Made by a program: the position numbers and the translations under genes
Shown: one piece after another, positions 1-42,422 of the stretch
How positions within the stretch are numbered: position 1 is the stretch's first letter
How the letters are laid out: each line of letters begins with the position of its first letter
Source: a virus
Taxonomy: Duplodnaviria; Caudoviricetes
Direction: 5' to 3' (one strand)
DNA: 64,000 nucleotides
Virus record (IMG/VR): IMGVR_UViG_3300031998_000010
Notes under the pieces: model-generated
The model's database searches: none
What the model was told of the DNA's origin: nothing
The model's input: only the letters and a program-made list of their open reading frames with translations

Positions 1-89
1 TCTGATAAATAAATAAAGCGACCATTTGTTCCTAAACCATCTTCTATAGTAAATTGGAATTCTTTGTTAGACCTAACATATCTTTTCAT
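1..89 (-). CDS. 5' part of a gene running off the window; begins with leader-type MKRYVRSN
   Basis: Manual translation MKRYVRSNKEFQFTIEDGLGTNGRFIYLS..., AAGGAG SD upstream; not in ORF track. Confidence 0.7.
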   Translation of the reverse strand, partial: MKRYVRSNKEFQFTIEDGLGTNGRFIYLS

Positions 90-94
90 AAGCT

Positions 95-724
95 TTATTC
101 TCCTTGTCCGTTATCTTCAATAATATCTTCGATATTTGCTACATAAGTAAGCCAAGTCCAATCGAATAATTGTGATTTACTCATATATGTAAGGTTGAGA
201 GCTACGCCGTCGTTTAATTTCTTCAAAAAATCAATATCACGACAAGAGTAATTCATATCAATCCATTCGCTACAACCATCAACATTGAATGCTACAATGT
301 ATTCAGAAAATTCTTTATTGCCAAGATTATCATACTTGTAGACTGCAAGTTTTCTTATCTTATCATAGTTAAGACCAGATAATGTAATAAGATAAGATAT
401 CTGCTCACCGCTAAGGTGTTGATTGATTTCAAATGTTACATCAAATCCAAACTTATTCAATTCTGCAAGAATCTCATCAGTAGAAAATTCTTTAATAATT
501 CCTGAAACTGGGTCTGGAGTTAATAAAGTTCCTTTAGAATTTACTAAGCAGGCAAATAATGTTCCATACTGTGTGTGATTAACAAGAATATTTGTTCCCG
601 ATAATCTATGGCTTCCATCATCAATAATCTGTTTGACAGTAATATATAAATCAGTGGAATTATTTGAACGACATTCTGATAATTGAATCCAGTTAGAAAT
701 GTTATAACGTAAAGGAGCGTTCAT
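95..724 (-). CDS. hypothetical protein
   Basis: 209-aa ORF, ATGA overlap with upstream gene, GGAGG SD. Confidence 0.75.
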   Translation of the reverse strand: MNAPLRYNISNWIQLSECRSNNSTDLYITVKQIIDDGSHRLSGTNILVNHTQYGTLFACLVNSKGTLLTPDPVSGIIKEFSTDEILAELNKFGFDVTFEINQHLSGEQISYLITLSGLNYDKIRKLAVYKYDNLGNKEFSEYIVAFNVDGCSEWIDMNYSCRDIDFLKKLNDGVALNLTYMSKSQLFDWTWLTYVANIEDIIEDNGQGE

Positions 725-1089
725 GCTGATATGACCTCCTTCTTTGCTAATCTTTCAGCTTCCATCCATTCTTTGTGCTCTTTAACATAGTTTCTAAGTT
801 CAATTTGAAAAGCAACAAGATTATCTGTAGAAGAATCAGGATATTCACTAAAGTAACTTGCAATTAAATCAAGCTTCAACTTAAAGTAGAGCACCTTATT
901 CTCTTCGTCAGTAATCTCAGGATGTTTTTCTCTGAATATAAAATAACGAGTTAAGACGGAACTGAATGCTTTGTGAATTACAGGGCTTTCAACAGATAAA
1001 TCTGCAGTTTGTAATGTTTTAAAATTACTAGGATTGAATTCTTTCAAATTCTGGAAGAATAAGTCTGTGAGTTCTTTTGTACTTCTCAT
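721..1089 (-). CDS. hypothetical protein
   Basis: 122-aa ORF directly downstream of portal. Confidence 0.75.
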   Translation of the reverse strand: MRSTKELTDLFFQNLKEFNPSNFKTLQTADLSVESPVIHKAFSSVLTRYFIFREKHPEITDEENKVLYFKLKLDLIASYFSEYPDSSTDNLVAFQIELRNYVKEHKEWMEAERLAKKEVISA

Positions 1090-1090
1090 A

Positions 1091-2631: not shown

Positions 2632-2641
2632 ATAAAAGGTT
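2632..2641 (-). promoter_or_regulatory. putative phage late-promoter element AACCTTWWAT (exemplar; 7 copies)
   Basis: Minus-strand AACCTT+AT-rich element 20-70 nt upstream of starts at 2632-2641, 6867-6876, 12195-12204, 18392-18401, 49844-49853, 56341-56350, 62817-62826. Confidence 0.6.
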
Positions 2642-4208
2642 ACTTGAGGAATTTTTCAAGGTCTTCATCAATAGAATATCTAGCGAAGAAAGCAGATTCA
2701 TCAAACATCGGAATATCTAATTCTCTTGCAGCCTGAATTGCTAAACCATCAATATTCTCTTTGATATCTCCAACAACTACGCATTGAACCTTCTTATCCA
2801 TCTGTGTAACTACTGTAGCAGAATAACTCTGAAGAATTGCAATAATATCTTCAGTATTTCCATGCAGGAATGTTCCTGTTATCAGTATTCTCTTATTTCT
2901 AAGGAGCGGAGCACCATCAAATTTTACAATTCTATCAGCATCAATTACTTCAATCTGCTCCGAATTGATGATTGTATCTAATTCCACTAAATTGCGAGGT
3001 TCATTTAACCATGCCATCAGTCTTCTAGGGACTTCCATATCTAACTCAGTAGCAATTCTTCTCGGACCTTCAAAATAATATTTAACTGTAGCATAAGAAT
3101 TATTGCACTTGTTGCAGAATTTAATAAGCCATTCTGTGTTTAATCCAACTTCACCATTGATACTTGCTAATAAGATTTCAGATAAATACTTCTTAATCTT
3201 AAGGTCTTTATACTTGGGTAAAAGAAGTAAATCAGGCAAAATCGTAATATCTCCTGACTTAACAGCTGAATCAAACTCTTCTTCGGTAGGCTTCTCAATA
3301 TCAAGCAAAGTGCAGAATCTGCTTATACGAGGATATAACAATGAAGTACAGAAAGGGTCACTACAAGTCATTGTTCCATCTTCAGGCACATCAAGAATCT
3401 TATGACAAGAAGAACAGGTTATTCTCTTCGGCAATCTATTTGCCTCATCATGTTGTGTAGAACACCAAATAACTTCTCCTGAATTATCATCAATAACTAT
3501 CTGAGAATCTTTCTGAATGTTAAATTTAACTGCCTTAGGATAATCAATTACCTTAGAAATTACATCAAACTTAAGTCCATACTTGATATAGCCATTGTAG
3601 TCGATAAGCTTAACAGGATTATCAATCACTTTGACAGTTGTTAAACTTGTAGAATAGTATTCACCCTTATTTTGACCTTCAAATACAAAGTAACCTGCAA
3701 TGAGCGGATATTCAAAAGTGATATGTGCATTTGTTGTCAAGAATGTTTTGAGTGATGCCTCGGGATTAACTATAGGAACAGCCCAACAAGGAAGTGACTC
3801 AAATCCTACCATCTTTGTCCATGCCTGCATGGATGAAGGAGTTATAGCCATTGCTCCGCTTTCTACATTTCCTACATAAAATTTATACTTCGGACTTCCT
3901 GATAAGATATCATTTTCAATTCTCTTAAATTCACAATCAGGAAGATTTCCATCAATTGCTTTAATTTCATTTGAGTAGAATACACCTTGGATATCTGTTG
4001 TTCCTCCATGAAGCTTAATTGTATTAGGAACTAAGCCCTGCCTAACAATTGCTTTGAGAAAATCTTCGCCAAGGTCTCCTTTGACATTGATGCCTTCATA
4101 TACTTTGTGTAACATACCATGAGCATCATATCTGAGTGTTACAAGAAGGCCGGTTGGTACTACATAGACCAATGAACCTGCTTTGCAAACGGTTTTTGTA
4201 AACAGCAT
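2640..4208 (-). CDS. NAD-dependent DNA ligase-like protein, catalytically degenerate (Zn finger + BRCT retained)
   Basis: VVPTGLLVTLRY replaces KxDGxxxxLxY; CSSC..CSDPFC Zn finger; C-terminal BRCT (ILITGTF..VQCVVVGD). Confidence 0.7.
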   Translation of the reverse strand: MLFTKTVCKAGSLVYVVPTGLLVTLRYDAHGMLHKVYEGINVKGDLGEDFLKAIVRQGLVPNTIKLHGGTTDIQGVFYSNEIKAIDGNLPDCEFKRIENDILSGSPKYKFYVGNVESGAMAITPSSMQAWTKMVGFESLPCWAVPIVNPEASLKTFLTTNAHITFEYPLIAGYFVFEGQNKGEYYSTSLTTVKVIDNPVKLIDYNGYIKYGLKFDVISKVIDYPKAVKFNIQKDSQIVIDDNSGEVIWCSTQHDEANRLPKRITCSSCHKILDVPEDGTMTCSDPFCTSLLYPRISRFCTLLDIEKPTEEEFDSAVKSGDITILPDLLLLPKYKDLKIKKYLSEILLASINGEVGLNTEWLIKFCNKCNNSYATVKYYFEGPRRIATELDMEVPRRLMAWLNEPRNLVELDTIINSEQIEVIDADRIVKFDGAPLLRNKRILITGTFLHGNTEDIIAILQSYSATVVTQMDKKVQCVVVGDIKENIDGLAIQAARELDIPMFDESAFFARYSIDEDLEKFLK

Positions 4209-6830: not shown

Positions 6831-6880
6831 TTGTATGACACCTTCAAAAATAGGATTTATGATTTTAATAAAGGTTAAAG

Positions 6881-6948: not shown

Positions 6949-7374
6949 TTATTTCTCAAACATATCTTCCTCAAAACCTAAGTAGTCAATCATGATTTTC
7001 TTTGCTTCATCAGCAGAAACTCCTAAGGCTTTTGAAATTTCTTTCTGTTCTGCAGCTGTCTCGGTGTCCCAATCTCCTGATACAGGATTGCTTGTGACAT
7101 ACTTATCTGCAATCTCGTCTACTTTTGCTTTCTGCTCATCTGTAAGCTCGATTGAAGCTTTAACTGAAGTACTTGCTTTAATATCAAATAAGCAAACTGA
7201 TAAATTAGCAATGATATCCTTTGTGACTTCGTCATCAGAATTAGCTAATACATCAATTGCTGCTTTGATATGCTGCTGAGCTTTATCATAGTTAGTAGCA
7301 GAATTTACTTTCTTTTGAGGTTTTACTGCTCTTGTTGAAGCAGTTACCTTCTTAGCATTTTTTGTAATCTTCAT
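6949..7374 (-). CDS. hypothetical protein with basic leader and repeated [IV]x[AS][SA] motifs
   Basis: MKITKNAKKVTAST..VNSA..IKAS.SVKAS. Confidence 0.75.
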   Translation of the reverse strand: MKITKNAKKVTASTRAVKPQKKVNSATNYDKAQQHIKAAIDVLANSDDEVTKDIIANLSVCLFDIKASTSVKASIELTDEQKAKVDEIADKYVTSNPVSGDWDTETAAEQKEISKALGVSADEAKKIMIDYLGFEEDMFEK

Positions 7375-10095: not shown

Positions 10096-10170
10096 TCATC
10101 CATTTACATAATTTGAAGGATATTTAGTAAAATATCTTTTCATTATTTTGCTATGTGAATAAATTTTCAT
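10096..10170 (-). CDS. 24-aa mini-ORF MKIYSHSKIMKRYFTKYPSNYVNG
   Basis: Manual translation; GAGGAG SD; fills the intergenic gap. Confidence 0.55.
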   Translation of the reverse strand: MKIYSHSKIMKRYFTKYPSNYVNG

Positions 10171-11547: not shown

Positions 11548-11555
11548 TAACGATT
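11548..11555 (-). promoter_or_regulatory. putative phage middle-promoter element AATCGTTA (exemplar; 12 exact copies plus 2 variants at gene junctions)
   Basis: Plus-strand TAACGATT at 11548, 15337, 25200, 30869, 33322, 37378, 37957, 53220, 54580, 55440, 59107, 60601; TAACGAAT at 29971 and 51632; all oriented toward a nearby minus-strand start. Confidence 0.75.
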
Positions 11556-12147: not shown

Positions 12148-12252
12148 ATTAAATGTGTTCTCCTAGTCTGTAAATTAGCTCTCTTTTCATAATCAATTAA
12201 GGTTGCGATACATGACCGCAACCTCTTTGAATTATTCATGAATTATTGAAAG

Positions 12253-15294: not shown

Positions 15295-15349
15295 ATTTGT
15301 ATTCTCCTTTGGTAATATTTTTATTGTCAATTAATATAACGATTCTGAA

Positions 15350-18358: not shown

Positions 18359-18409
18359 TCAGAGTATTCCTTAATGAGATTATTCAATTACATTAAAGGT
18401 TAAAGGAAC

Positions 18410-19402: not shown

Positions 19403-19415
19403 TATGTAATTCTCC

Positions 19416-21120: not shown

Positions 21121-21129
21121 TGTTCACCT

Positions 21130-21489: not shown

Positions 21490-21492
21490 TTC

Positions 21493-24132: not shown

Positions 24133-24140
24133 ATTTTACC

Positions 24141-25166: not shown

Positions 25167-25206
25167 CGGTATCCTCCTTTAATGTTTTCTTCTATACTAT
25201 AACGAT

Positions 25207-25977: not shown

Positions 25978-25980
25978 ATA

Positions 25981-27084
25981 TTACTCCTGGAATGCTAATA
26001 CGATTGCCAAATTATCTGTCCAGAAAAGACTTCCTGAAAGCTCGCCTTCATTGTAGACAGGGCCAATCTTGATTCTATCACTATCGATGCTAGAGAAAAT
26101 TGACTTGAAGAAAGTTGACTTGAAATCTCCGGCATAATCGTTAAGCTCGCCTGTCTTTGTAATATCAAGTTTGAAATCACCTGAACCTCTATTAAGTGTG
26201 AGTGTATTATTCTCTACCTTAAACGAAGTTGACGTATCCTGAGATGTAGCAACGATATCTGCCTGATTCAGGAACTTGATAATAGGAGCTACATCTACTT
26301 CAATGTAAGACTCCGGCTTATTTAATGTTCCAAGAATTGCTTCTGAATTGTAGCTACCAACGCCTTCGTCTGTCTCATATTCAGGAATAAACTGAGAAGT
26401 AAGTGTATATCCGTCTGTATTTACGCTAAGGACATAACTATTGTCTACTTTCTTAATCTTGGAACCTTCAGGAAGATTAGTAAAGAGATTGATGATAGTA
26501 GGATTCAAAAGACAAGTAGAACCGAGATTTGACTTATTAGACAATGTAAAGATAACATTATCAATATCTCCTACGATTACTTTACTATCTGCACCAACCC
26601 AAACTTTGGTATAGACAGGATGAATCATCCAAACAGAAATAGCAAACATCTGGTGTTCCTTAACAAACTTCCAATCACCTGACTTTAATTCAATACCATC
26701 TGCTGAATCTGTTGTTGCTGGCCTATTTAATGAAAGATTATTAGAATCAATCAACTTAGGAAGTGTGAATTTGCTTGAACCTGAATGGAGTGCAATTCCT
26801 CCGTCTACATATTCAATTGTTGTGATATCCTTATCAAAGGAATCAATCAACTGCCTAAGAAGTGAACAATCAACAAAAATTGTTTCTGCTGTATCAGAAT
26901 CACCCGAACCTCTGAGAACTATCTCTGTGTAAATAGAGGGTGCTTCAATGTTAATTCTCAAATTCTCTCTGTCTGCTGTAACCTGAGCAAGGCAGCTCTT
27001 CTGATTGAATTTAGAAATATTTTCCTTAATAATTCCTAAATCCACTGCATTCTGTAACGGCTTTGTTGACAATGTAAATTTCAT
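25981..27084 (-). CDS. sliding clamp, DNA Pol III beta-like
   Basis: 367 aa (beta-clamp size), MKFTL start, beta-rich; lies between polymerase and clamp loader. Confidence 0.65.
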   Translation of the reverse strand: MKFTLSTKPLQNAVDLGIIKENISKFNQKSCLAQVTADRENLRINIEAPSIYTEIVLRGSGDSDTAETIFVDCSLLRQLIDSFDKDITTIEYVDGGIALHSGSSKFTLPKLIDSNNLSLNRPATTDSADGIELKSGDWKFVKEHQMFAISVWMIHPVYTKVWVGADSKVIVGDIDNVIFTLSNKSNLGSTCLLNPTIINLFTNLPEGSKIKKVDNSYVLSVNTDGYTLTSQFIPEYETDEGVGSYNSEAILGTLNKPESYIEVDVAPIIKFLNQADIVATSQDTSTSFKVENNTLTLNRGSGDFKLDITKTGELNDYAGDFKSTFFKSIFSSIDSDRIKIGPVYNEGELSGSLFWTDNLAIVLAFQE

Positions 27085-27105
27085 TTTGATTTCTCCTTTA
27101 TATTG

Positions 27106-29937: not shown

Positions 29938-29986
29938 AATGTATCCTCGTCAATTCTAAGTTTGTAAAGATAACGAATGTAAGAAA

Positions 29987-30754
29987 TCAGAATGTAATTT
30001 CAGACTCAGGAAGAGGTTCGTTGCCATCATCTGAAGTAAAATCTTCAGAAGGTACCGGAGCCTCTCCATTTACATTAGGTGTAAAGTTTACTGCTACAGT
30101 CTCTTCTTTGGACGAAACTGCTTCTGCAGCATCTACATATGTTTCAGGAATTGATGCTTGATATCCTGCTCTAGGAATAGGAGTGTACTCCGGCATATTA
30201 GCAGCAGATTCATTTCCAGAATTCTGAAGCATTGCTGTCAATTCAGATACACTTGCATCCTTGATAACAACTGAATATGCATCAGGCATCTTTGTATTAA
30301 ACTTAGCAAGAAGTGCTCCATAAGGTCCAATAGCATTCTTACCTACTGCTTCAATACTATAAGTTGTATTGATATCATTCGGAACACCATGTCTTGTGAT
30401 TCTAAATACAAATTCTGAAGGATTAGGGAATCTATTGAATACTGTCTGCTCCATTACAGGTTCAAACTTCATATTTCTATCCCAGAATTCAATCTCATCT
30501 TTGTCAATGTTATAGATAGGAATGAACAATTTAGTCTGAACACGAATTCCTTTGCCACAAGCGGGGCAACCCTGTTCACAACAATGAACATATCCCGAAT
30601 AATCTGCTGACTTGATATAGTGTGCCTGTGCAACTAACATATCCTTCATAGACTGATAAAGAAAGATTACGTCTGCATGGTCACCATCATTGACAAGCCT
30701 AAAGAGGCCGTGATAACGGTCGTCGTTGAATTGTTCTACGGATTTGAAAGCCAT
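29987..30754 (-). CDS. single-stranded DNA-binding protein (gp32-like, Zn-binding)
   Basis: H..HCCEQGCPAC, FRITRHG..TTY, acidic tail ending in F. Confidence 0.65.
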   Translation of the reverse strand: MAFKSVEQFNDDRYHGLFRLVNDGDHADVIFLYQSMKDMLVAQAHYIKSADYSGYVHCCEQGCPACGKGIRVQTKLFIPIYNIDKDEIEFWDRNMKFEPVMEQTVFNRFPNPSEFVFRITRHGVPNDINTTYSIEAVGKNAIGPYGALLAKFNTKMPDAYSVVIKDASVSELTAMLQNSGNESAANMPEYTPIPRAGYQASIPETYVDAAEAVSSKEETVAVNFTPNVNGEAPVPSEDFTSDDGNEPLPESEITF

Positions 30755-30885
30755 AATAAAAATTTCCTCCTGTTGATATGTGTTGATTTATTTCATGTGG
30801 GCTTTCGTATCCTGTACTCTTGCACTTGTTGATGTTCAACTACAACCTACATTATTTATATCATACTTTAACGATTCGCCATTTT

Positions 30886-30918
30886 GTTGAAAGGAGCCCT
30901 TTCGGGCCCTCTTTCAAC
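30886..30918 (-). terminator. GC-rich hairpin with GAAA loop after sigma-like gene
   Basis: GTTGAAAGAGGGCCC-GAAA-GGGCTCCTTTCAAC. Confidence 0.55.
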
Positions 30919-30945
30919 TTATATTAGGATTATAAGTAGACTAAC

Positions 30946-31608
30946 TTAACCACAAGCAAGCTCCAACATCTTGAGGAGTTCCTGGTTATTGCGAAGCTGT
31001 TCAATGATTTCTGCGAACTCTTTCTTAGAAACTGAAACATCTCCTAATCTATCGCCGTTGTTCTTGTTACGAGAAACTGCAAGAGAATCATCAGGATTGA
31101 TGAGTTTGTTTGCAACCTTCTCAGCCTTAGGACCCATCTTAGCGATAATCTCCCAGACAGCTTCCTTTGCCTGCTGAACCTCAAAAGTATCATCGTTAGA
31201 AGGTGCAAGGTCAAAAAGATTGACGATGCCATCTTCGGCGGTTACTTCGTTGGACATCTCCAACTTATACTGATTAATGTTGACCTGAGAAGCTCCTACA
31301 CAACTGATGCAGTTAGCAGCTACTCTATAGATGTAACCAGGTGTGAATCTCTTCGGATTCTCCATGATAAGAGGTACGTTCTTCATGAGATACTGGTTAA
31401 CCTCAGAAATAGCATCTTCCTCAAGAGCAGGACCATAAGAATACCTCTCCTTGTACCAAGCGAGCTCAATTTCATTAAAGAAATTGACAAATAAAAGAAC
31501 CGCCTTATACTCGTCATCAGCATTAAGCCATGCCTCGTATGTAAGCGGGAACTCGAAATCGTGAAGGTATTCCATGTAAAGGTTACGGGTGGTTCTGAAC
31601 TGTGACAT
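30946..31608 (-). CDS. ECF-type sigma-factor-like protein
   Basis: EEDAISEVNQYLMKN..RFTPGYIYRVAAN resembles sigma region 2 (ED..QE....F..YLYRIARN). Confidence 0.55.
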   Translation of the reverse strand: MSQFRTTRNLYMEYLHDFEFPLTYEAWLNADDEYKAVLLFVNFFNEIELAWYKERYSYGPALEEDAISEVNQYLMKNVPLIMENPKRFTPGYIYRVAANCISCVGASQVNINQYKLEMSNEVTAEDGIVNLFDLAPSNDDTFEVQQAKEAVWEIIAKMGPKAEKVANKLINPDDSLAVSRNKNNGDRLGDVSVSKKEFAEIIEQLRNNQELLKMLELACG

Positions 31609-31680
31609 AATACTTCCTCCTTGGAATCTTGATATGATGTGACTGTTGATATGTGAGCCACTGCCTATAATGACATTTTA

Positions 31681-31709
31681 ATTATAATATAAAATAATGA
31701 AAAAATAAA
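31681..31709 (-). promoter_or_regulatory. host sigmaA-like early promoter TTTATT-N17-TATAAT
   Basis: -35 at 31709-31704, -10 at 31686-31681; similar TTTATT-N17-TAnnnT at 37537-37509 (-) and 38460-38488 (+). Confidence 0.55.
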
Positions 31710-31739
31710 GCCCTGTATATGTGTCCTTCATATATTTCG

Positions 31740-32783
31740 TTAAAATCTTTGTGAATAGTAGAAGTCAAACTCTTCTTTTGACAAATCATTCACATCACGA
31801 GCTATCTCTTCTCCCGACTGCGGGTCAACTCTAGGAGGGATAGTCATCATTCTTACTATTGCTACTCTGGAGAGAGCTTTCTTTAACTTTTTAGCCCCTC
31901 GTTGTCCTGCACTGTCGTTATCAAGACATAATACAAATTCACTTGCACCAATCATCTTGAGCTGATGAATTTCTGCTTCAGTACCAGTACCCAGAAGTGC
32001 TACGGCATTATAGCCGTATCTGCAAGCAGTAAGACAATTAAAGCAACTTTCTGTTATAACAACAGATTTTGCACCTTTTGGGAGTTCATATAATCCATAA
32101 ACAGATTTTGCTTTTCCACTATCCATAAAGAAGAATTTTCCTTTTATACTTCTTCTGCAAAATCCGAGAGTATGTCCTTCTATATCACGAATAGGAAATG
32201 TTATACAAGGGATAGGATTCTTCTTTCCTTGAGGTCTGAAATTTGCATCATATCCTACGTCATACTTATTGATTATCTCATCAGTGAGTTTTCTTTCATA
32301 CATGTAAGGAACAATCAATCTGTAAGATGCAAGCTCTTTTTCACTGACATATTCAGGAGTTGTATTCATTTTAGATTGAATGTAATTTATAGCATATTTA
32401 TTTACTATTTCGGAAGATAATTCAGGTGGAATTAGATAATCGAAGTCAGATTCATCATAATTGAATCCAGGAACATTTTCTTTAAGCCATTCTAGTCCTG
32501 AACGAGTAATGTTCTTGTCTTTGAGTAAGTCAGTTACTACATCCGGTAACATCTTGCGATAGCCGCAAGCAAAACAATGACACCATCCTGCAGGAGTTAC
32601 TTTACCATCTCTTACTTCGTCACGAAGTAGTATACCACAAGAAGGCCTTTTATCTTCTCCCCCAACATGGCCCGCTTTATTAGGACAGTGAATCTGATAA
32701 TAATTACCTACAGGTTTAACTAACTGTAGCATTCCAAAGCTTTCTAGAACCTTTAATGTACTTCTTATCTGTTCTTCAGTCAT
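31740..32783 (-). CDS. DNA primase (Zn finger + TOPRIM)
   Basis: CP..H..CHCFAC, ITES.FN, LCLDND.AG, RDVND; start MTEEQ likely. Confidence 0.88.
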   Translation of the reverse strand: MTEEQIRSTLKVLESFGMLQLVKPVGNYYQIHCPNKAGHVGGEDKRPSCGILLRDEVRDGKVTPAGWCHCFACGYRKMLPDVVTDLLKDKNITRSGLEWLKENVPGFNYDESDFDYLIPPELSSEIVNKYAINYIQSKMNTTPEYVSEKELASYRLIVPYMYERKLTDEIINKYDVGYDANFRPQGKKNPIPCITFPIRDIEGHTLGFCRRSIKGKFFFMDSGKAKSVYGLYELPKGAKSVVITESCFNCLTACRYGYNAVALLGTGTEAEIHQLKMIGASEFVLCLDNDSAGQRGAKKLKKALSRVAIVRMMTIPPRVDPQSGEEIARDVNDLSKEEFDFYYSQRF

Positions 32784-32952
32784 TTGATTCTCCAAATACT
32801 TCGGGAGCATATGTTACTTTACAATATGCAATTCCAACAGGACCTACTACAAGTTTACGAAAGAATATACATCCCTCACAATTCTTATGCTTCTTGCAGT
32901 AAGCAAATACTTTATCTAAACAATCGCTAACTTCTTTCTCTTCAGGAGTCAT
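32776..32952 (-). CDS. 58-aa Cys-rich hypothetical protein
   Basis: Manual translation MTPEEKEVSDCLDKVFAYCKKHKNCEGCIF...; overlaps both neighbours. Confidence 0.6.
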   Translation of the reverse strand: MTPEEKEVSDCLDKVFAYCKKHKNCEGCIFFRKLVVGPVGIAYCKVTYAPEVFGESND

Positions 32953-33296
32953 CCTTTATACCAATTGTTTCTATCAAATTGAGTTTGAGGATAGGAAGTA
33001 GTTATCTTCAATTCCCCATCAACAATATCACACTCGTGCACCACGAATTGATTTGCATTATTGACAAGTGACAAATCTACAACCTGAGAAATTGATAATG
33101 AGATAGTATCAATATCTTTTCTTTGAATAAAGTTTGTTAACCAATCAACAGCATTTTCAACAGACTCAAAATCATGAATAGCTGAAGGACAATCAGGATT
33201 GCCATCATATACAATGTAAGGCAAATTAGTGTCACTATGAATTCCTACAAATCTTCGATTATTGTAGAATTTATTAATAGGCTGAATAATAAACAT
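32949..33296 (-). CDS. hypothetical protein
   Basis: Start reassigned to MFIIQ after AAGGAGGTG SD and AATCGTTA motif. Confidence 0.7.
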   Translation of the reverse strand: MFIIQPINKFYNNRRFVGIHSDTNLPYIVYDGNPDCPSAIHDFESVENAVDWLTNFIQRKDIDTISLSISQVVDLSLVNNANQFVVHECDIVDGELKITTSYPQTQFDRNNWYKG

Positions 33297-33333
33297 ATAC
33301 TCACCTCCTTGACACTTTATATAACGATTCTGA

Positions 33334-34686
33334 TTAGAACTCAAGGCCTGAATCGTCATCGTCTGTGAGGTCAAGTCCTTGAATGATATCAGGAACAGGG
33401 CCAGTCGAAGGAGTAAGCTCTGAAGTATTGATTTCAGGAGTAGTTATCATCGGGTCTTCATCTGCTCCACCCGGAAGATACTGCATGTTACCATTATTTA
33501 CATCCCAAGAATAAGACAAAGTATTATTCTCGTTTAAGGCCATTCTAGATTTCTCAAGTCTTATTTCAAATACATGTTTGTCAAATATCTGGCGAATTGC
33601 ATATACCTGAGTGGCAATCTGACCTATTGCATCTGAACCTGCTATATTATAGATAGTAGGGAAGGGCACGCCTTTATCATCTTTAGATTCTTTAGTTTCT
33701 CTATTAGCCTGCGCCGCTAATACTACAGCACAACCATATTTCTTACTTAATTGAAATAAATCATGACAGATATTTCCATATTTCTCATGGTCACTAAATC
33801 CCTTTCGGTCATCTACCATGTATGAAATACCGTCTATAAGAAGTATCTGAATATTATGTTTCTTTACAAATGATGAAAGATGTCTCGGAGATACACCCTC
33901 AGGCATATCTTTATCCTCAATTATGTAGAAATCTGCATTAGTTTCTTCAGGAAGTTTCTTTAAGTAGTCGATGTATTCTTGAGAATATTGACCGGTGAAT
34001 ATTTTACTATTCTGATGATGTCCTCTCCAAGTATCAACTCTTGTAGCCAAATATGCGGCCTGCATTTCTGGAGAATAATATGCTACATTAAATCCGGCTC
34101 TATTAGCAGCCTCGCCAATCCTTGTTAAGCACCAGGACTTACCTACATTTGAACGACCTACGAATACAAGTAATTCCTCTACTGTAGAAAGACCACCATA
34201 ACTGAGTTTATCTAACTCGGCAAAACCTGTAGGAATTCTTTTTTGCTTTGACCATTCTATGACCTGGTCACTTCTTTCTTGAGCCTGCTTGATAATATTC
34301 ATAGGAGCTACATCTGTTAAAGAATCAGCAGCATCTAATTGCTGTGCTACAAACTCCCAAGCTACGTCAACATCAGCAGAACCCATATCTGTCAACTTAT
34401 TGAACATATTCAAGAATAAGATATGACGCTTATTCTTCTTTATTTCAGTTACTAAGTAATCAAGAGGTTCATCTACAGCTACAACTTGGAATTTAGGAAA
34501 TTCTGCAGAAAATGTAAATCTATCAGGGACAACATTATACTTATCCCTGTGGTCCAGGATAAACTTTATTTCTTCCTTACAAGCTTCGTAGTAACTTTCG
34601 TCAAAACTACAAAGCTCATCTACCAATGCTTCATCATTGGAGGTAAGTATTTTTGAAATAACCTGTAACTCAATTGAACCTGTCAT
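33334..34686 (-). CDS. replicative DnaB-like helicase
   Basis: GRSNVGKS, SPEM, LLIDG, AAQANR, EKSR. Confidence 0.88.
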   Translation of the reverse strand: MTGSIELQVISKILTSNDEALVDELCSFDESYYEACKEEIKFILDHRDKYNVVPDRFTFSAEFPKFQVVAVDEPLDYLVTEIKKNKRHILFLNMFNKLTDMGSADVDVAWEFVAQQLDAADSLTDVAPMNIIKQAQERSDQVIEWSKQKRIPTGFAELDKLSYGGLSTVEELLVFVGRSNVGKSWCLTRIGEAANRAGFNVAYYSPEMQAAYLATRVDTWRGHHQNSKIFTGQYSQEYIDYLKKLPEETNADFYIIEDKDMPEGVSPRHLSSFVKKHNIQILLIDGISYMVDDRKGFSDHEKYGNICHDLFQLSKKYGCAVVLAAQANRETKESKDDKGVPFPTIYNIAGSDAIGQIATQVYAIRQIFDKHVFEIRLEKSRMALNENNTLSYSWDVNNGNMQYLPGGADEDPMITTPEINTSELTPSTGPVPDIIQGLDLTDDDDSGLEF

Positions 34687-34695
34687 TATAAATTA

Positions 34696-35286
34696 TCACT
34701 TCTGAACAGAATTTGTCATCATATTCTTTAACTGACCAAAGAAAATACCATCACCGGCAAGAGATTTTATTTGAGGAGATACAATGATTGTACTTAATCC
34801 ATTTGCGTCTCTATTCTGTAAAAGAGACAACAGCGTCTGACATTGGAACTCCTTGAAATTTACATAATCTATATTTGAGATAATGAGCAATTTTGCAGTT
34901 TCAGCCCATATCTTAATGTATTCAACCTCTTCAGTCATTCCTTTTGTATTCCAACTTTTCTGAATACCGTCAAGATATTGAGAAAATCTGAGGTTGTAAA
35001 CACTCATGTGTAACCTACTATGCTTCCAATGTTTACATATACCACAATATGTTAATAGCTCAGAAGATTCATTTGTATTATTTGCTATTACTGTTATTAA
35101 TCTCTTCTCTTCTGAATTATTAACAATGTCGATATACTTTTGGAGCATTTTAGGGTCTGCATGAAATACATTACTCTTTAACGAGATATTATTCTTTTCA
35201 AGCAAATAAGAAGACTGAACATAATCAGGACAAGCTTTATCACATTCGCCGTTTACACAAAAACCTGTGAAGATACAATCATGCAT
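34696..35286 (-). CDS. DnaC/DnaI-like helicase loader, degenerate ATPase
   Basis: N-terminal Cys cluster, LLIISNID and NR..NGLSTIIVS like DnaC; no Walker A. Confidence 0.55.
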   Translation of the reverse strand: MHDCIFTGFCVNGECDKACPDYVQSSYLLEKNNISLKSNVFHADPKMLQKYIDIVNNSEEKRLITVIANNTNESSELLTYCGICKHWKHSRLHMSVYNLRFSQYLDGIQKSWNTKGMTEEVEYIKIWAETAKLLIISNIDYVNFKEFQCQTLLSLLQNRDANGLSTIIVSPQIKSLAGDGIFFGQLKNMMTNSVQK

Positions 35287-36478
35287 TCTGCTGTAACCTC
35301 CTGATTACTGGATTTCTTGATTGCTTAAAAGCAACACGACTCTTTACACACTGCCTTGCAATATCAATAGGATTATATCCTCTCTTTATATATTCCTCTG
35401 CAGGCATTACAAGAGTTAAGAAAGGATGTAACTCACCATACAAAGGATATTTGAAATAGACATTTCCGATATCTCTATCTAGGAGATACTTTCTTACTAG
35501 ATATTCTTTAACATATTCTGCTTGGCGAGGTATCTGCTTTGAAATCTCTAACGAGTCCCAAATATCCATTGTTGGAACTAATTCGCCGTTTATTTCAATC
35601 CAACCATAGAAACTAGGAAAATCTGTGTTGCTCTGTAGACCTTTCTGATGACGAGCTAACTTATACAAATGTGGATATTCAATTATGCACTTAAGTACCT
35701 GCTCCCTTGTATAGCCTTCGATTGGAATGATATTTCCAAACTGCTCATCTTTGTCTAATCCAATATCTTCATACATTGCTTGAGCACGAGTTTGAATAAA
35801 ATGATTAGGAAATAAATTCAATAAATCACTATCTGACATCTTATTGACATCAGTTGTAGCAGAAATATCTCTTTGTCTCTGTGGAATCTCCGGCAATGTT
35901 GTATAGACTACAAGTTTGTCTACTCCGTCCATTCCTTGCATGAATGGTTTATTATAATCAAATTGAGGAACTTCAGGTGCCTGTAAGTACAAATCGAGCG
36001 GGTCTGTTGGCTTGATAGAATAATCAACAGAAGGAGCTGCATCTACAGGAGTAAATTTAGGTTTTGCTACTTCTATTATATTCTTGACAGGCTCTTTCTT
36101 TACAGGCTTACTTGCATATACAGAATCATCGGGCTCTTCTACTACCTTTAAATCCCAATCAATAGCATCAACTGTAAGGTAAATTTCACCTAATACCCTC
36201 TTAATATCATCTTCATCAATGTCTGTTGGCATATTCACGAAAGGATTCTGAGGAGACCAATCAAACGGAAGAGGTTCAGATGAATATACTGCATAAGTTA
36301 TAATGTTGATAATTTTAACAACCTGTTCCTTATACTTTGCAGTTCCTTGATAATGCTTTACTACATACGTGATTACTGAAGAATGCATTGAAGACAAAGT
36401 GCCTTTATACGATTTCTTCACTTGATAATTTTCTGAAATGTTTGTGAATTTAATCTTATGCTTGTTGGAGTATAACAT
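35279..36478 (-). CDS. hypothetical protein (replication region)
   Basis: 399-aa ORF. Confidence 0.8.
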   Translation of the reverse strand: MLYSNKHKIKFTNISENYQVKKSYKGTLSSMHSSVITYVVKHYQGTAKYKEQVVKIINIITYAVYSSEPLPFDWSPQNPFVNMPTDIDEDDIKRVLGEIYLTVDAIDWDLKVVEEPDDSVYASKPVKKEPVKNIIEVAKPKFTPVDAAPSVDYSIKPTDPLDLYLQAPEVPQFDYNKPFMQGMDGVDKLVVYTTLPEIPQRQRDISATTDVNKMSDSDLLNLFPNHFIQTRAQAMYEDIGLDKDEQFGNIIPIEGYTREQVLKCIIEYPHLYKLARHQKGLQSNTDFPSFYGWIEINGELVPTMDIWDSLEISKQIPRQAEYVKEYLVRKYLLDRDIGNVYFKYPLYGELHPFLTLVMPAEEYIKRGYNPIDIARQCVKSRVAFKQSRNPVIRRLQQNA

Positions 36479-37347
36479 TAGATGTTACCTCCTTTTGCTG
36501 TTGATGTAAATTCTAATGTTTCAAGTAAATTGTTCTGATTATTTACTCTTGTTCTAATTGCACCAGTAAGTGCAGGATTATTTGTTCTTACAAGAGATAC
36601 AACATCATTTTCATCAATATTACTAGATAACGAATAGTAACATTTTTCAATCAATAAATCAGAAATTAATACTGCCGACAATGTAAAACATTCTCGCTTA
36701 TCTGACTTACAAGTATTGTAGACACAATAGGGAACCCTATATATGTTATGTGAGTCTTCTTGAACATCTTTGCACCATGAATTAAACTCTTGCTGAAGGT
36801 CATATACTTTGCCTTGTTCAAAGTAGTACCCATATGTTATGATTATCTGTGAAATCCATAAAGGAATTTGATTAATATTATATCTGAAATCTGAATTACT
36901 GTTCTTTGGAAATCTTGTTTGAAACCATTGATTAATTAAACATGCACATTGATTAATTTCTTCATAACCAAAATCGACATTAGTTCCGGTTTGCAAAATT
37001 GTACTATATTTAAGTATTGACGCAGAATTATACTGTTGACCTGATGTATGTAAGTCATCAAAATTCTCCGGACTCCTGACCTTTGAATACTTGATATCAT
37101 CATCTGCCGGCTTACTAAGTTCGTCAAACTCAGTATCATCGGAGGATAAAAGTGTTTCAGATTCTATGAATTTATTGATTTTGTCTAAACACTGCATTAG
37201 AAGTTCTGCTAATTTCTTATACCTGAGGATAGTTTTCTTATACACCTTAGGCTTTTCTTTCAACATCTTATCAAGATGAGCAAGGATTTTCTTAGCAGCA
37301 ACTTCGGAAGGATATATTTCTAAGTACTTTAATTTTTCTTTTTGCAC
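36478..37347 (-). CDS. hypothetical protein
   Basis: 289 aa, GTG start with GGGAGG SD. Confidence 0.75.
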   Translation of the reverse strand: MQKEKLKYLEIYPSEVAAKKILAHLDKMLKEKPKVYKKTILRYKKLAELLMQCLDKINKFIESETLLSSDDTEFDELSKPADDDIKYSKVRSPENFDDLHTSGQQYNSASILKYSTILQTGTNVDFGYEEINQCACLINQWFQTRFPKNSNSDFRYNINQIPLWISQIIITYGYYFEQGKVYDLQQEFNSWCKDVQEDSHNIYRVPYCVYNTCKSDKRECFTLSAVLISDLLIEKCYYSLSSNIDENDVVSLVRTNNPALTGAIRTRVNNQNNLLETLEFTSTAKGGNI

Positions 37348-37395
37348 TGTTTACCTCCCGATATTTGTTTTGATATGTAACGATTTGTAGTAGTG

Positions 37396-37500
37396 TAAAA
37401 ATACCGCTACCGGCTCCACTTAAGATAGATAATATGAATGATACCGCAAACATATCAAATATCAAAAATGGAGTCGGCAGCGGTATCTGCACAAGTGAAC
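37396..37500 (-). ncRNA. candidate small structured RNA
   Basis: 18-bp GC-rich inverted repeat 37401-37418/37469-37486 followed by a U run; upstream TTTATT-N17-TATCAT. Confidence 0.4.
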
Positions 37501-37582
37501 TTATCCTTATGATATAATGGAAATGTTGAAAAATAAATAGTAGAACTTAATGAAAAATAAATTATTTTTAAGTGATTCTCAT

Positions 37583-37921
37583 TTAATCATCTATTCCGTA
37601 GTAATGCTCAGAACTGACATTAGGAATGAACCAAATATCAAGAGTGTTATCTGCCTCATTCCACTCGGCACTAATGAATACACCTGACTTTTCACTAGGA
37701 TTCTTTGCCCATTCTCTAGCGTCAAATGTATCAACAGCAACAAGCTCGTGATAATGCCTTTCGACTTCTTCGTCCTCACAAGTAACTACATTAACTTCAA
37801 TATTACTAGGAATTTCTCCTTCAAAAATATAGTCATCAATATCTTCTATGATAGAAGAAATATGAATGCAATCATTTTCATACCTGTTGTTGATTATTTT
37901 AACTAACTCCTGAATTGTCAT
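37583..37921 (-). CDS. acidic hypothetical protein
   Basis: 112 aa, AAGGAGG SD. Confidence 0.75.
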   Translation of the reverse strand: MTIQELVKIINNRYENDCIHISSIIEDIDDYIFEGEIPSNIEVNVVTCEDEEVERHYHELVAVDTFDAREWAKNPSEKSGVFISAEWNEADNTLDIWFIPNVSSEHYYGIDD

Positions 37922-37964
37922 ACTATCTTCCTCCTTAGCAATATTTACACTATATCTAACGATT

Positions 37965-38530
37965 CACAGGGTACATATACTGCCGGTCAAGGGGACGAAT
38001 GTTGTAGAGCAAGAAATTTCAAAGAGCGAAGCAGCGAGGCGAGCGGGCAATCAATATATAATAATTTAATTAAAAAACGAAAATAAGAATGAAATTAATT
38101 TATAACTTAATTAATTTATATTTCTTATATTTCTTTATATCTCAATTGATATATCTATATATCGGCAACTTCTTGAAATAATTCCTGAATCTTTATTATA
38201 CTATAGTGAAAATTAATAGTCCTACAAGTTGACAAATCTTATCAATTCTGAAATATCTACTGAATTGATTGAAAATATAATCATTTATTTAGATATTGTA
38301 TCAATCTTGAAATAATTTGAAGATTTAATGTAGGTAAATATAAATTTTCTTTTATATGTTGATGTAGTGTAACATTACGATTTCTTTACGGTCTCATCTC
38401 GATGAAATTAAATCTAAAAAATTTAAAAGAAATTTTCTATATTTCTAATGAAATTTACTTTTATTTTTCTAATGTTTATATATAATCTAATTATATCAAT
38501 ATTTTTCAAATCCCTTCCCAGTAACTTAAA
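37965..38530. other. AT-rich divergent intergenic region, candidate replication origin/control region
   Basis: Largest non-coding gap; TCTTGAAATAATT repeated at 38171 and 38305. Confidence 0.4.
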
Positions 38531-39433
38531 TTGATGCATGAGAGGTGTACTGTGTTTATGGATTATCCTTCTGCCTATCCTACGAAATTGCCGAAGTTAT
38601 CTGAAGATGCTTCTAAGAAAGAAAAGAATGATTGGATAAAATTGAGGACCTTGGAGCTATATAGTTTCTTACCTCAGACTACTCTTGAAGAAAGAGATTC
38701 TTATAGAGACATCAGAGATGAAATTATATGTATTAATGAAAGTTTCTTTTGGTATGTGGCAAGATTAAAGATACCTGTAAGTAAATATGTAAGTATAGAA
38801 GATAAATATCAGTCCGCAATATGCAGTTTTATGACCAACTGTTTGTGGGCTAAATTTATGTTTAAACCTGAAGTAACAGATTCAAAGAACAGAAGATATC
38901 GTGATGATTTGGCTTTCACTAGTTTCTTTAAGCCCCGACTCACAGAGTGTATTGAAAGAGAATTATTTGATGTTAAATGGTCACTTCGTCGTTCATTATG
39001 TATCAAGGCAGGCGAACAGTTAGGAAAGAAAGGCACTGAGGTTGTTTATGAAGATTTAGTGAATGTTCACCTTCCTCCCGAAGAAATGGAAGCATTGATG
39101 TCAATATTCTGCACTACTAATACTGCAGATGTAAATGATATTTCACTTTATAAGCCGGCAAGTACTATTGTAGAAGACAGAATTGAAGAAATGTATAATG
39201 ACGAATATGATTCTGTCGAAGATTTATTAGTCCACGAAATGCTTGAAAGAGAGGCTAAACTTGAAGATTCATTCTTACTTAAGATGTCAGAAATGTATGG
39301 AATTCCCTTCAATGAATTAGTAGAAGCTAGACCTGGAGCTGAAGAAAAATTAAGGAGACAGCTCGAAGAAGCAATTAGTGTACAAGATGCATTTTCATTT
39401 AGCGATGAGTATTATTCCGAACTTGATGACTGA
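38531..39433 (+). CDS. sigma70-family-like protein (only plus-strand gene)
   Basis: RDEIICINESFFWYVAR..SIEDKYQSA..AFTSFFKPRL resembles sigma region 2; true start probably 38552/38558. Confidence 0.6.
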   Translation: MMHERCTVFMDYPSAYPTKLPKLSEDASKKEKNDWIKLRTLELYSFLPQTTLEERDSYRDIRDEIICINESFFWYVARLKIPVSKYVSIEDKYQSAICSFMTNCLWAKFMFKPEVTDSKNRRYRDDLAFTSFFKPRLTECIERELFDVKWSLRRSLCIKAGEQLGKKGTEVVYEDLVNVHLPPEEMEALMSIFCTTNTADVNDISLYKPASTIVEDRIEEMYNDEYDSVEDLLVHEMLEREAKLEDSFLLKMSEMYGIPFNELVEARPGAEEKLRRQLEEAISVQDAFSFSDEYYSELDD

Positions 39434-40268: not shown

Positions 40269-40280
40269 GTATGTGTCTCC

Positions 40281-40763: not shown

Positions 40764-40775
40764 GAATATTTCTCC

Positions 40776-41003
40776 TTAGTTAAAATCGATTAGTTTTCTT
40801 ATATCTGAAATTTCAAGAGCTTCTGCTATAGTAGATAGATGTTGAAGATTGATTCCTGACCGGCAACCTCTACAGATTTCACTTATAGTGGATTCTCTGA
40901 TTCCTGTCATATGTGCCAATTCTTTCTGAGAAATTCCTCTTTCTTTGAGGACATCTCTTATTTTAACTTTGATGCTAGGTTTTGTGGAACAATATATTTT
41001 CAT
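40776..41003 (-). CDS. XRE-family HTH protein with MKIYCS leader
   Basis: RGISQKELAHMTGIRESTISEI. Confidence 0.85.
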   Translation of the reverse strand: MKIYCSTKPSIKVKIRDVLKERGISQKELAHMTGIRESTISEICRGCRSGINLQHLSTIAEALEISDIRKLIDFN

Positions 41004-41012
41004 ACTATATCC

Positions 41013-41726
41013 TCAAATTCCGTTAGGAAGATGAGTTCTCTTATCTCCTGTTAATTTTGCATATTTTGCTACATTTCTAATATATTGCCAAAAGAAATGT
41101 CCCTTACTTGGGGCTGCTACGAATTTCTGCCAAATCTTTGTAGGAATATCATAGTATATGTAAATATCATCAGGGCCTCCATTAGCTCCTTTGAATTGAA
41201 TCAACATATCACCTTTGTTATAATCTTTAGGTTGAAATGCATAGCTCCACAAATTAGAAGACTTTACTCTGATTAATTTCTTAATGAAATCCTTTGTAGA
41301 GAAATTAGATTTAGCAAAAATAGGTTTGCCTTTGATTAATTCACTAGACTCAATTTCAACTAATTCTACTGCTTCTAGTCCATATGTATTGAGTATTCTT
41401 TCTACTGTATCAATAAATTCTATTGTAGAATCACAATAAGTTTCATTTAAGAATTTTTCATTTTCATACAATGTTACTGTGATTGTATCAGGAGATAATT
41501 CACAGTAAATATTTATCACCTTAGATTCATCAGGAATTTTATCTGTTCTTCGATAAAAGTTCATTTCAATAGGCTCAAAGCCTAACATAGTGAGAGCCTC
41601 AATTGTATCTAAATAAAATGATTTAGAATTTTGTGAGGTCTGCATATTCTTCATCCTCCCAAGGGATTTGCATTGATTTCTTATAAGCAATTCTCTTCTT
41701 TTCAAATGCACTATAGACAGCTTCAA
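41013..41726 (-). CDS. KTSC-domain protein
   Basis: C-terminal VKSSNL..Y....IYIYYDIP..W..FVAAPSKG.FF...IR; real start probably about 27 codons downstream (MQTSQ). Confidence 0.7.
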   Translation of the reverse strand: MKLSIVHLKRRELLIRNQCKSLGRMKNMQTSQNSKSFYLDTIEALTMLGFEPIEMNFYRRTDKIPDESKVINIYCELSPDTITVTLYENEKFLNETYCDSTIEFIDTVERILNTYGLEAVELVEIESSELIKGKPIFAKSNFSTKDFIKKLIRVKSSNLWSYAFQPKDYNKGDMLIQFKGANGGPDDIYIYYDIPTKIWQKFVAAPSKGHFFWQYIRNVAKYAKLTGDKRTHLPNGI

Positions 41727-41967
41727 TGTTTGCTACATTTCTTAACGGTCCATTCATAACACTTTTCAAGATACTTCTGCGAATCGGTAAATAAGTCCGC
41801 TTATCTAATAAAAGGTATTCTTCTTGACTATTTGCAGTTGTTGGAATTTGATAAGAATACTTTATTGCAGAATATGCAATAATTTCTTTTGCTAGACTCA
41901 CCCAGCAATCATCGTCATATCTGCAGTAGAAGGGGTTATCATCTGTGTGAATACCATATACACTCAT
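41623..41967 (-). CDS. hypothetical protein
   Basis: 114 aa. Confidence 0.7.
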   Translation of the reverse strand: MSVYGIHTDDNPFYCRYDDDCWVSLAKEIIAYSAIKYSYQIPTTANSQEEYLLLDKRTYLPIRRSILKSVMNGPLRNVANIEAVYSAFEKKRIAYKKSMQIPWEDEEYADLTKF

Positions 41968-42422
41968 ATTAGTACCTCATATTTCTTGAAGTAATTTTCT
42001 ATTTTCTTATATGTGAAATCTACAAGTTTTTTCTTACAATCAGGTAAGCTGATTAAATCCTTAGGTTCAAACCTCAAATAACCTAATGTTACTTCATATT
42101 TATCAAGTAAGATAACATTTACTCGGATATATTTTCCATATGTAGTGATATTGAAATAGATATTAGCTTCATAAATATCTTCTTCAATACCATTTAATTC
42201 CTTATTGTATTCTTTCATCTGTTTCCGGAGTTCGAGAGGAATCTGATACATTATTGTAGTATAGATAATGTATTCATTCGGAGGTTCTTGTACCTTATAA
42301 ACTCCACTGAGATTTTCTTTTAAATATTTACCTAATCTTTTTATTTGTGAAGGTAAAGGAAGTCTGTTGTAATATTCTTCTCTACCGTCAAAGTGTTGTT
42401 TTGTTTTAGCATAAATTTTCAT
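41964..42422 (-). CDS. hypothetical protein (MKIYAK start)
   Basis: 152 aa, GAGG SD. Confidence 0.75.
   Translation of the reverse strand: MKIYAKTKQHFDGREEYYNRLPLPSQIKRLGKYLKENLSGVYKVQEPPNEYIIYTTIMYQIPLELRKQMKEYNKELNGIEEDIYEANIYFNITTYGKYIRVNVILLDKYEVTLGYLRFEPKDLISLPDCKKKLVDFTYKKIENYFKKYEVLI

Follow-up and report, generated by a model that had tools for sequence, protein, structure and literature searches.

A short N-terminal leader of the type MKIYIKAS is shared by otherwise unrelated proteins of a tailed virus (Duplodnaviria; Caudoviricetes) known from IMG/VR record IMGVR_UViG_3300031998_000010. The stretch analyzed in the present study, hereafter the window, comprises 64,000 nucleotides and corresponds to positions 65,918-129,917 of the 175,559-bp record; genome-wide counts refer to the whole record with its 261 called proteins. 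The presence of the leader as an N-terminal tag was confirmed. On the basis of sequence comparisons, we propose that it represents a capsid-targeting and processing tag of the T4 type, fitted to a prohead protease for which the residue preceding the cut (P1) has changed from Glu to Ala or Ser, and we assign this reading a probability of approximately 0.6. The change at P1 and the greatly expanded set of tag-bearing proteins (carriers) are new relative to the capsid-targeting sequence (CTS) of T4. The evidence newly obtained here consists of co-variation at the level of clades, a check of the protease fold, and the placing of the tag relative to the folded domain.

All 15 N-termini that an earlier note on this DNA had listed were found on the minus strand, with their starts correctly placed, and the three codon strings it quoted were also correct. 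The claim of a shared leader on unrelated proteins was borne out, and the statistical case was stronger than originally presented. The strict pattern ^MK[IVLRKF]Y[IV][KRQ][SANCT] matched 17 of the 261 proteins and had no internal occurrences; the expectation was 0.07 from column-shuffled N-termini (maximum of 2 in 2000 shuffles) and 0.0016 from composition. A loose pattern yielded 24 carriers. The core K[IV]Y[IV][KR][SA] occurs 10 times in the genome, every time at residue 2. When the first 12 residues were cut off, no BLASTP match with E<0.01 was obtained between any two of the 24 loose-pattern carriers. Among the 15 listed N-termini, those starting at 9760, 10170, 16510, 7374 (a longer leader), and 42422 are weak or atypical.

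Each of positions 3, 5, 6, and 7 of the tag is encoded by several synonymous or conservative alternatives: ATA, ATC, ATT, GTA, GTT, and GTC for Ile/Val; AAA, AAG, AGA, and AGG for Lys/Arg; and TCA, TCT, TCC, TCG, GCA, and GCT for Ser/Ala. This codon variation indicates that selection acts on the peptide. MKxY starts were present in 125 of 969 distinct clade proteins; 82 of these leaders have the long form M-K-x-Y-[IV]-[KR]-[SA]-[SA] and 34 have the short form M-K-I-Y-[AC]-S, both of which contain [IV]-x-[small]-[S/A]. The information content exceeds 2 bits at positions 5-7, is 1.9 bits at position 8, and is less than 0.7 bit from position 9 onwards, in agreement with the previous description of a leader of approximately 8 residues that is conserved at the peptide level. 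Carriers account for approximately one in ten proteins here and number 24-48 per genome in the clade (9-16% of genes).

The record has a GC content of 35%, nearly all of its genes are on the minus strand, and its Shine-Dalgarno sites are strong. Gene layout and Shine-Dalgarno strength are as in phages of Firmicutes-type hosts, which suggests a host of this kind. The window encodes a T4-like portal, as previously claimed (Pfam Portal_T4, 54.9 bits). A tblastn search with this portal gave no match in 50,697 deposited phage genomes and, thus, yielded no close relative in culture; among cultured phages, the most similar capsid proteins have 25-29% identity. Queries with Pfam S77, Pfam Gp23, and the protease and capsid proteins of relatives found nothing in the 175.6-kb record. 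By synteny with a 200-kb relative, the capsid and protease genes would sit beyond the high-coordinate end of the record. Since these genes are not in the record, relatives were used. The record itself is rated 100% complete, yet it is without genes for the major capsid protein and prohead protease. The earlier note had proposed that the prohead protease be located and the capsid propeptide checked for the leader's site; this failed in the phage's own record and succeeded in relatives, in which the site is present at the capsid boundary.

The capsid protein of the relatives is of the Gp23 type (Pfam, 64.5 bits). Directly upstream of its gene lies that of a protein of approximately 490 amino acids (aa), the N-terminal part of which is a protease domain and the C-terminal half a coiled coil. 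Against Pfam Peptidase_S77 (gathering cut-off, 27), the protease domain was a marginal match, at 22.7 bits in the 200-kb relative and 27.5 bits in another. A Foldseek search with its AlphaFold model (predicted local distance difference test [pLDDT] score, 91.5) returned T4 gp21 as the best match (5JBL; E 1.9e-6; template modelling [TM] score, 0.66; root-mean-square deviation, 2.1 A), followed by the proteases of human cytomegalovirus (HCMV), Kaposi's sarcoma-associated herpesvirus, pseudorabies virus, and herpes simplex virus (HSV). The protease profile of a sister clade matched 5JBL with an E value of 9e-9. His70, Ser125, and Asp149 were invariant in 60 aligned protease sequences from both clades.

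The motif at the end of the leader recurs in these head proteins. The fusion protein of the 200-kb relative ranks first among 301 proteins for [IV]xA[SAT] (8 sites against 1.09 expected, p 1.9e-5). Four sites of this type are conserved in the fusion proteins of five relatives: EF-x-x-[IV]-A-A-[ST] directly after the protease domain, KR-[IV]-x-A-S, KTVVAST, and VTAST near the C-terminus. The capsid propeptide of the relatives contains further sites and ends in [IV]-M/T-[AG]-A↓TNTSNI (the arrow marks the predicted cut), a few residues before the Gp23 homology. The ending [IV]-x-[AS]-[SA] that had been ascribed to the leader is, therefore, the motif that tops the enrichment in the scaffold and flanks the capsid propeptide boundary in the clade. 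Most carriers bear one such site at the N-terminus, with sites at an ordinary density in the rest of the protein. Separately, five relatives were seen to conserve A-T-N-T-S-N-I-G within the C-terminal tail of the fusion protein. This sequence is almost the same as A-T-N-T-S-N-I-M, with which the mature capsid protein is predicted to begin, and both segments may vie for a common binding site.

A search with the protease domain against 1.8 billion representatives retrieved 2702 relatives, and the scaffold motif was assessed by unbiased dipeptide enrichment following [IVL]-x in the scaffold part. In 78 close scaffolds (proteases 42-78% identical), AS was the top pair (281 against 42.8 expected, 6.6-fold). 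In 53 scaffolds of the sister clade (31-40% identity), the top pair was ES (290 against 49.3 expected, 5.9-fold); [IVL]-x-E-S is the classical gp21 rule. Leaders of the sister clade were counted in 80 loci, 76 of which had a recognizable protease and 75 of these 76 a Glu-type scaffold. The window's clade had 57 Ala/Ser-type leaders and no Glu-type leader among 999 proteins; the sister clade had 33 Glu-type leaders and no Ala/Ser-type leader among 1222 proteins (Fisher p 2e-25, a value that overstates independence because the Glu-to-Ala switch was essentially one evolutionary event). Leaders near the protease in the sister clade include MKLYVKED, MKLYIQEN, MKLRIKES, and MRFLLREE. In an unbiased count of N-terminal [ILV]-x-Z, Glu was the top Z in the sister clade (2.4-fold). 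The order in the window's clade was Ile (2.0-fold), Ala (1.7-fold), and Ser (1.65-fold), with Ile on top because of the I-Y-I of the tag itself.

The median GC content was 34% in the sister loci and 36% in the window's clade, and ribosome-binding sites were alike. Since the sister loci are equally AT-rich, they serve as the AT-matched control that the earlier note had called for, and they contained none of the leaders of the window's type in 1163 proteins. Three near-invariant Arg residues of the Glu-type proteases (alignment positions 36, 39, and 74) are replaced by the neutral residues N/L, L/M, and P, respectively, in the Ala-type proteases. The leader's P1 thus co-varies with the scaffold's P1 across clades, which strengthens the previous suggestion that the leader ends in a protease site. 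As judged from the sequences, the scaffold, the capsid propeptide, and many non-homologous leaders all appear to follow a single switch.

The CTS of T4 internal proteins is the 10-residue MKTYQEFIAE (PMC8442874). Targeting is affected by residues 4 and 7, and processing by residues 8 and 10; the CTS is sufficient for loading foreign proteins into heads (PMC9026906). The present leader resembles this CTS in being a short N-terminal sequence with an M-K-x-Y start on unrelated, non-essential, and fast-evolving proteins, in ending with the motif that punctuates the scaffold and capsid propeptide (read here in relatives), and in belonging to a T4-type head module, with a gp20 portal in the window and a gp23 capsid and gp21-fold protease in relatives. 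However, the predicted cut is [IV]-x-A/S↓S/A with Ala or Ser at P1, rather than the [LI]-x-E↓ of T4, and no Glu-type leader occurs in the 999 clade proteins. The leader is also shorter (6-8 residues against 10), the protease forms a fusion with the scaffold, and 24-48 carriers per genome replace the handful in T4. Moreover, the host appears to be Firmicutes-like, the clade has no cultured member, and the system is known from sequence alone.

Herpesvirus assemblins (HCMV UL80a, HSV UL26) cut themselves at release and maturation sites of the form (V/L/I)-x-A↓S. The phage protease shares their fold, as indicated by Foldseek, and the position N-terminal to a coiled-coil scaffold. The predicted sites are likewise located just after the protease domain and near the C-terminus (VTAST), with an aliphatic P3, Ala at P1, and Ser at the residue following the cut (P1'). 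The HCMV protease domain ends in ...YVKA, the release site (PMC13486704), and an HCMV protease assay substrate contains ...Asn-Ala-Ser-Ser..., from which it follows that proteases of the gp21/assemblin fold can cut Ala↓Ser. However, the phage enzyme appears to be of the gp21 lineage, with 23% identity to gp21 and 8-12% to the herpesvirus enzymes. In gp21, Asp is a catalytic residue, and Asp149 is likewise conserved in the phage enzymes; the herpesvirus enzymes have a second His instead. In view of this gp21-like lineage, the likeness to assemblin is a resemblance and not membership, and the shared Ala↓Ser specificity is probably convergent. Use of the cut site as an N-terminal tag on a cargo library is not known from herpesviruses.

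In the giant phages phiKZ, 201phi2-1, and SPN3US, a gp21-type protease, which cuts at S/A/G-x-E or A-x-E, matures many of the proteins inside the head, and the propeptides are thought to target proteins into the prohead (PMC5694885). These propeptides are mostly longer than 100 residues, have Glu at P1, and are backed by mass spectrometry, whereas the present leaders have 7-8 residues with Ala or Ser at P1 and were recognized from sequence. The cultured Streptococcus phage vB_SagM-GXN1 (PQ819873) belongs to the Glu-type sister clade and also has a protease-scaffold fusion (558 aa, 18 [ILV]xE sites). It differs from the window's clade in having Glu at P1 and, like its clade, the three protease Arg residues. 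Its small unannotated head-module open reading frames (ORFs; Table 1) begin with similar leaders, and the phage would lend itself as a model for the Glu-type tag. Only 40 features are annotated over its 176 kb.

The carriers appear to belong to a rapidly changing part of the genome. In the 200-kb relative (portal identity, 81%), 48 of the 301 proteins are carriers. Homologues in this relative were found for 9 of the 24 carriers against 147 of the 261 proteins overall, and carrier orthologues with 39-66% identity retain the leader. One phosphoribosyltransferase (PRTase) starts with the leader MKRYVRNK in the 200-kb relative and has none in the present genome. The scarcity of carrier homologues and the PRTase with and without a leader indicate that the tag is modular and sits on this fast-changing part.

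A family of 29 tandem paralogues of approximately 110 aa, located inside the late, tail, and baseplate operons of the 200-kb relative, combines either form of the leader with a linker of variable length and then [FY][IV]GKD[IL]WVK. In the model of this family (pLDDT 80.7), residues 1-11 form a coil (pLDDT of about 60) and the fold, a small beta-rich domain, begins at residue 12; Foldseek found no match for it below E 0.09. In this model, which is of the sole family modelled, the tag is predicted to lie outside the folded domain, and the variable linkers agree with this position.

We envisage the following sequence of events, in which cleavage, packaging by the tag, and injection are inferred from sequence. 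Proteins with either the long or short form of the tag would be recruited to the scaffolding core during prohead assembly, the core in this clade being a protease-scaffold fusion protein, and the protease domain of this protein is suggested to be the tag receptor itself. Once activated, the gp21/assemblin-fold protease would digest its own scaffold and remove the capsid propeptide. The same enzyme would cut off the tag behind its small residue ([IV]-x-A/S↓S/A), and the mature proteins would stay in the head and leave it with the DNA at infection. These steps differ in strength. That the tag is a substrate of the prohead protease is very likely on the sequence evidence. By analogy with T4, we consider it probable that tagged proteins are loaded into the head; that the cargo consists of injected effectors is a tentative extension of the same analogy, to which we give somewhat less than even odds.

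In addition to the single origin of the switch, several findings weigh against the proposed packaging tag. If P4-P1' correspond to residues 4-8, only M-K-x is left as an address, and the tag may then amount to no more than a cut site. With 24-48 species, among which are 29 paralogues of a single small protein, the cargo would far exceed the handful in T4. The record is without the protease and capsid genes of this phage, and the motif was derived from relatives with portals that are 81-84% identical. In several of the listed N-termini, the presumed P1 is Ser, Asn, or Cys or a small P1' is missing, so that not all of them need be substrates. In this genome, 13 carriers lie behind the late-type promoter-like motif and 11 behind the other type (p 0.28, not significant).

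The numbers in the 200-kb relative are 38 and 10, respectively (p 1.6e-4). The late-type motif at 18392, which the earlier note had taken, with the terminase, to bound the region of most carriers, is a member of a promoter-like family that also precedes portal, terminase, baseplate, and fibre genes; this part of the claim stood, and late expression of the carriers was only partly supported. A second motif, RAATCGTTATA, occurs at about 35 intergenic places across the genome and precedes replication genes and small-ORF arrays. Since it is also found before replication genes, some carriers would not be driven by the late-type motif alone. The association with late promoters is, thus, weak support at best for the timing of carrier expression.

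The shortness of the address also favors an explanation in which the leader is a mere prohead-protease cut site on proteins needed at assembly, such as additional core or scaffold proteins or proteins switched by late proteolysis, which are then expelled or degraded, with no injected library. The evidence for a cut site is silent on the fate of the proteins, and the 141-aa protein at 6949-7374, with its four sites, resembles a chopped-up scaffold. However, the single N-terminal site of most carriers is the arrangement of T4 internal proteins, the carriers are non-essential and turn over fast, unlike core assembly factors, and the equivalent T4 tag is enough to retain foreign proteins in heads (PMC9026906). 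We regard this explanation as unlikely, although it has the strongest claim after the packaging tag. A different enzyme or machine might also read the leader, for example a host protease of the Prp type, a degradation adaptor, or a modifying enzyme, without any relation to the capsid. Enzymes of the Prp type clip N-terminal extensions like ...LNLQFFA↓S in Firmicutes (ribosomal protein L27, phage 80alpha). The Ala↓Ser junction of the leader is like this site, and some carriers lie behind the promoter type that also precedes replication genes. However, across clades with similar GC content and ribosome-binding sites, the leader's P1 tracks the scaffold motif of the phage itself, which is not what a host enzyme predicts. 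The protease was the only partner enzyme noted to co-occur, although the search for one was not systematic, and we consider a reader of this kind improbable. The Prp/L27-type extension itself was rejected because the logo of 116 leaders is without Phe-Phe or LNLQ and P1 follows the phage protease clade. A Sec, Tat, or lipoprotein signal peptide, which would show a hydrophobic core of about 10-15 residues or a lipobox, was also rejected since the conserved part spans 6-8 residues, is charged, and precedes an unconserved polar sequence.

Least probable, to the point that we hardly entertain it, is that the likeness is a by-product of AT-rich or unstructured 5' ends, a copied DNA element, or the first beta-strand of hidden paralogues. 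Starts of the MKIY type come cheaply with AT-rich codons, and 65 of the 261 proteins in this genome of 35% GC start with MK. However, the 17 strict matches far exceed the 0.07 of the column shuffles, the codons vary both synonymously and between Lys and Arg, the AT-matched sister loci have none in 1163 proteins, and the bodies of the carriers share no similarity. Furthermore, the leader is predicted to be a coil outside the fold that is followed by linkers of variable length, and the most highly expressed structural genes start with MA... or MS... instead.

The coordinates of the carriers and other features are listed in Table 1. Pfam and PHROG scans of 20 carriers found them to be orphans, except for one protein with a helix-turn-helix (HTH) of the XRE type and one BspA-LRR protein (570 aa, outside the window). 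The XRE regulator that had been named among the cargo is supported by the match of the protein at 40776-41003 to Pfam HTH_3 (49.3 bits, residues 15-66); a putative Cys protease could not be confirmed. None of the replication genes in the window (18410-37347) has the leader, as previously noted. The two most site-rich proteins of the genome are small basic proteins, one of which is in the window (6949-7374). It is the most site-enriched protein of the genome, with 4 [IV]xA[SA] sites against 0.26 expected (p 1.6e-4), and is a candidate for a multiply cut prohead core or internal protein. For the 341-aa carrier, nothing usable was returned by the ESM Atlas. Relatives have starts like that of the leader at 9760, namely MKIYSHS and MKIYSHT. 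The second half of the small ORF at 10096-10170 resembles the leader of a 372-aa protein of a relative (MKRRFTKYPSNYVGAAS), and this ORF is probably a remnant of a carrier gene.

Table 1. Coordinates of tag carriers, head genes, promoter-like motifs, and related features in the window, unless another sequence is named
Feature	Position	Strand	Remarks
Carrier MKRYVRSN, 103 aa	1-89 (first 29 codons); genome 65695-66006	-	Downstream of the portal operon; remainder left of the window
T4-type portal, 506 aa	1091-2611	-	Portal_T4, 54.9 bits; PHROG 213 portal
Terminase large subunit, 672 aa	4250-6268	-	PHROG 2 / 17415, weak
Basic protein, 141 aa, MKITKNAKKVTAS	6949-7374	-	Longer leader; VTAS10, IKAA36, IKAS65, VKAS71
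Carrier MKIYIRAS, 341 aa	7397-8422	-	Orphan
Carrier MKIYVKAS, 146 aa	8791-9231	-	Residues 4-7, YVKA, identical to the HCMV release-site end YVKA
Carrier MKIYIKST, 84 aa	9236-9490	-	
Weak carrier MKIYSHG, 89 aa	9491-9760	-	Short form, Ser at presumed P1
24-codon ORF MKIYSHSKIMKRYFTKYPSNYVNG, start MKIYSHS	10096-10170	-	
Carrier MKRYIRNS, 313 aa	10180-11121	-	Orphan
Carrier MKILIKAA, 130 aa	14902-15294	-	Homologue in the 200-kb relative starts MKRYIRSA
Weak carrier MYIDSA, 386 aa	15350-16510	-	Y-I-x-S-A without MK; PHROG 3754, unknown function
Carrier with offset leader MKLSRIYAS, 255 aa	16682-17449	-	I-Y-A-S at residues 6-9
Carrier MKVYIKSS, 161 aa	17451-17936	-	Orthologue in a relative (53% identity) starts MKLYIKAS
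Carrier MKIYIKSS, 98 aa	39556-39852	-	
Short-form carrier MKIYCST, 75 aa, XRE/Cro-type HTH	40776-41003	-	Domain from residue 14
Short-form carrier MKIYAKTK, 152 aa	41964-42422	-	Orthologue in a relative (66% identity) starts MKIYAKSK
Weak case MKVYIRFG, 112 aa	57338-57676	-	Past the span of the earlier note; no small residue at positions 7-8
Late-type promoter-like motif TAACCTTTAAT...	18392-18400	-	Family TAACCTTWTAT
Other copies of TAACCTTWTAT family	12195-12203, 6867-6875, 2632-2640, 49844-49852	-	Copy at 6867-6875 precedes a small ORF and the terminase; copy at 2632-2640 precedes the portal
Second promoter-like motif GAATCGTTATA	15337-15343, 11548-11554; also 25200-25206, 37957-37963, among others	-	Family RAATCGTTATA
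29-paralogue family	200-kb relative L035:13974-16594, L036:17286-19723, L037:381-8439; this genome 52886-53242		
Sequence shared by the fusion-protein tail and the capsid protein	200-kb relative L041:10001-12968		
Head-module ORFs of vB_SagM-GXN1, unannotated	117872-143023		Starts MRLIRLLED, MRLVRLTED, MRLVKLTES, MRLIRLNED

Several other features were noted, the first three of them on the minus strand of the window. At 2640-4208, between the terminase and portal genes, lies the gene for a 522-aa protein with a BRCT domain at its C-terminus (27.5 bits; weak PHROG matches to the C-termini of NAD-ligases), and this order is the same in all relatives examined. A queuine tRNA-ribosyltransferase-like gene (18410-19402; PHROG 887, E 4e-36) is located at the head of the replication block and suggests a 7-deazaguanine modification of DNA or tRNA. 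The adjacent genes at 53253-53819 and 53823-54479 encode proteins starting with MEE(Q)W(K/R).(V/I).(G/D)YEG.YEVSNLG.VRS and look like a duplicated pair of the endonuclease type. Families of small-protein paralogues with N-termini of their own (MRLGDLDAL..., MK[VL][VI]IDIPDE..., and MTNEEAIKIL...) are present at 27785-39165 of the genome and at 56352-59034 of the window. Unlike the tag, their likeness runs into the body and, thus, appears to be ordinary paralogy.

The packaging tag leads to a broader picture, which we offer as speculation and hold to be still more doubtful than the injection of effectors. A whole clade of uncultured T4-like phages with Firmicutes-type hosts may have re-tuned its protease to Ala or Ser at P1, convergently with assemblin, and may have tagged hundreds of non-homologous accessory proteins, with the protease domain acting as the receptor. 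In such phages, 10-16% of the proteome would be delivered by the virion through a minimal, orthogonal packaging system. If the packaging-tag reading is right, substrate specificity in the gp21/assemblin family would be evolvable, with the scaffold, the capsid propeptide, and dozens of tags having changed together, and the clade would represent a natural experiment on the co-evolution of a protease with its whole substrate set. The analysis also provides a rule for annotation: the enriched [IVL]-x-P1-P1' motif of the scaffold is taken and sought among residues 1-10 of other proteins. A tag of 7 residues would become available for loading foreign proteins into phage heads, orthogonal to the Glu-type CTS of T4. 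On the same reading, approximately 25-50 orphan proteins per genome would be candidates for virion-delivered proteins, for which roles in counter-defence or host takeover are plausible.

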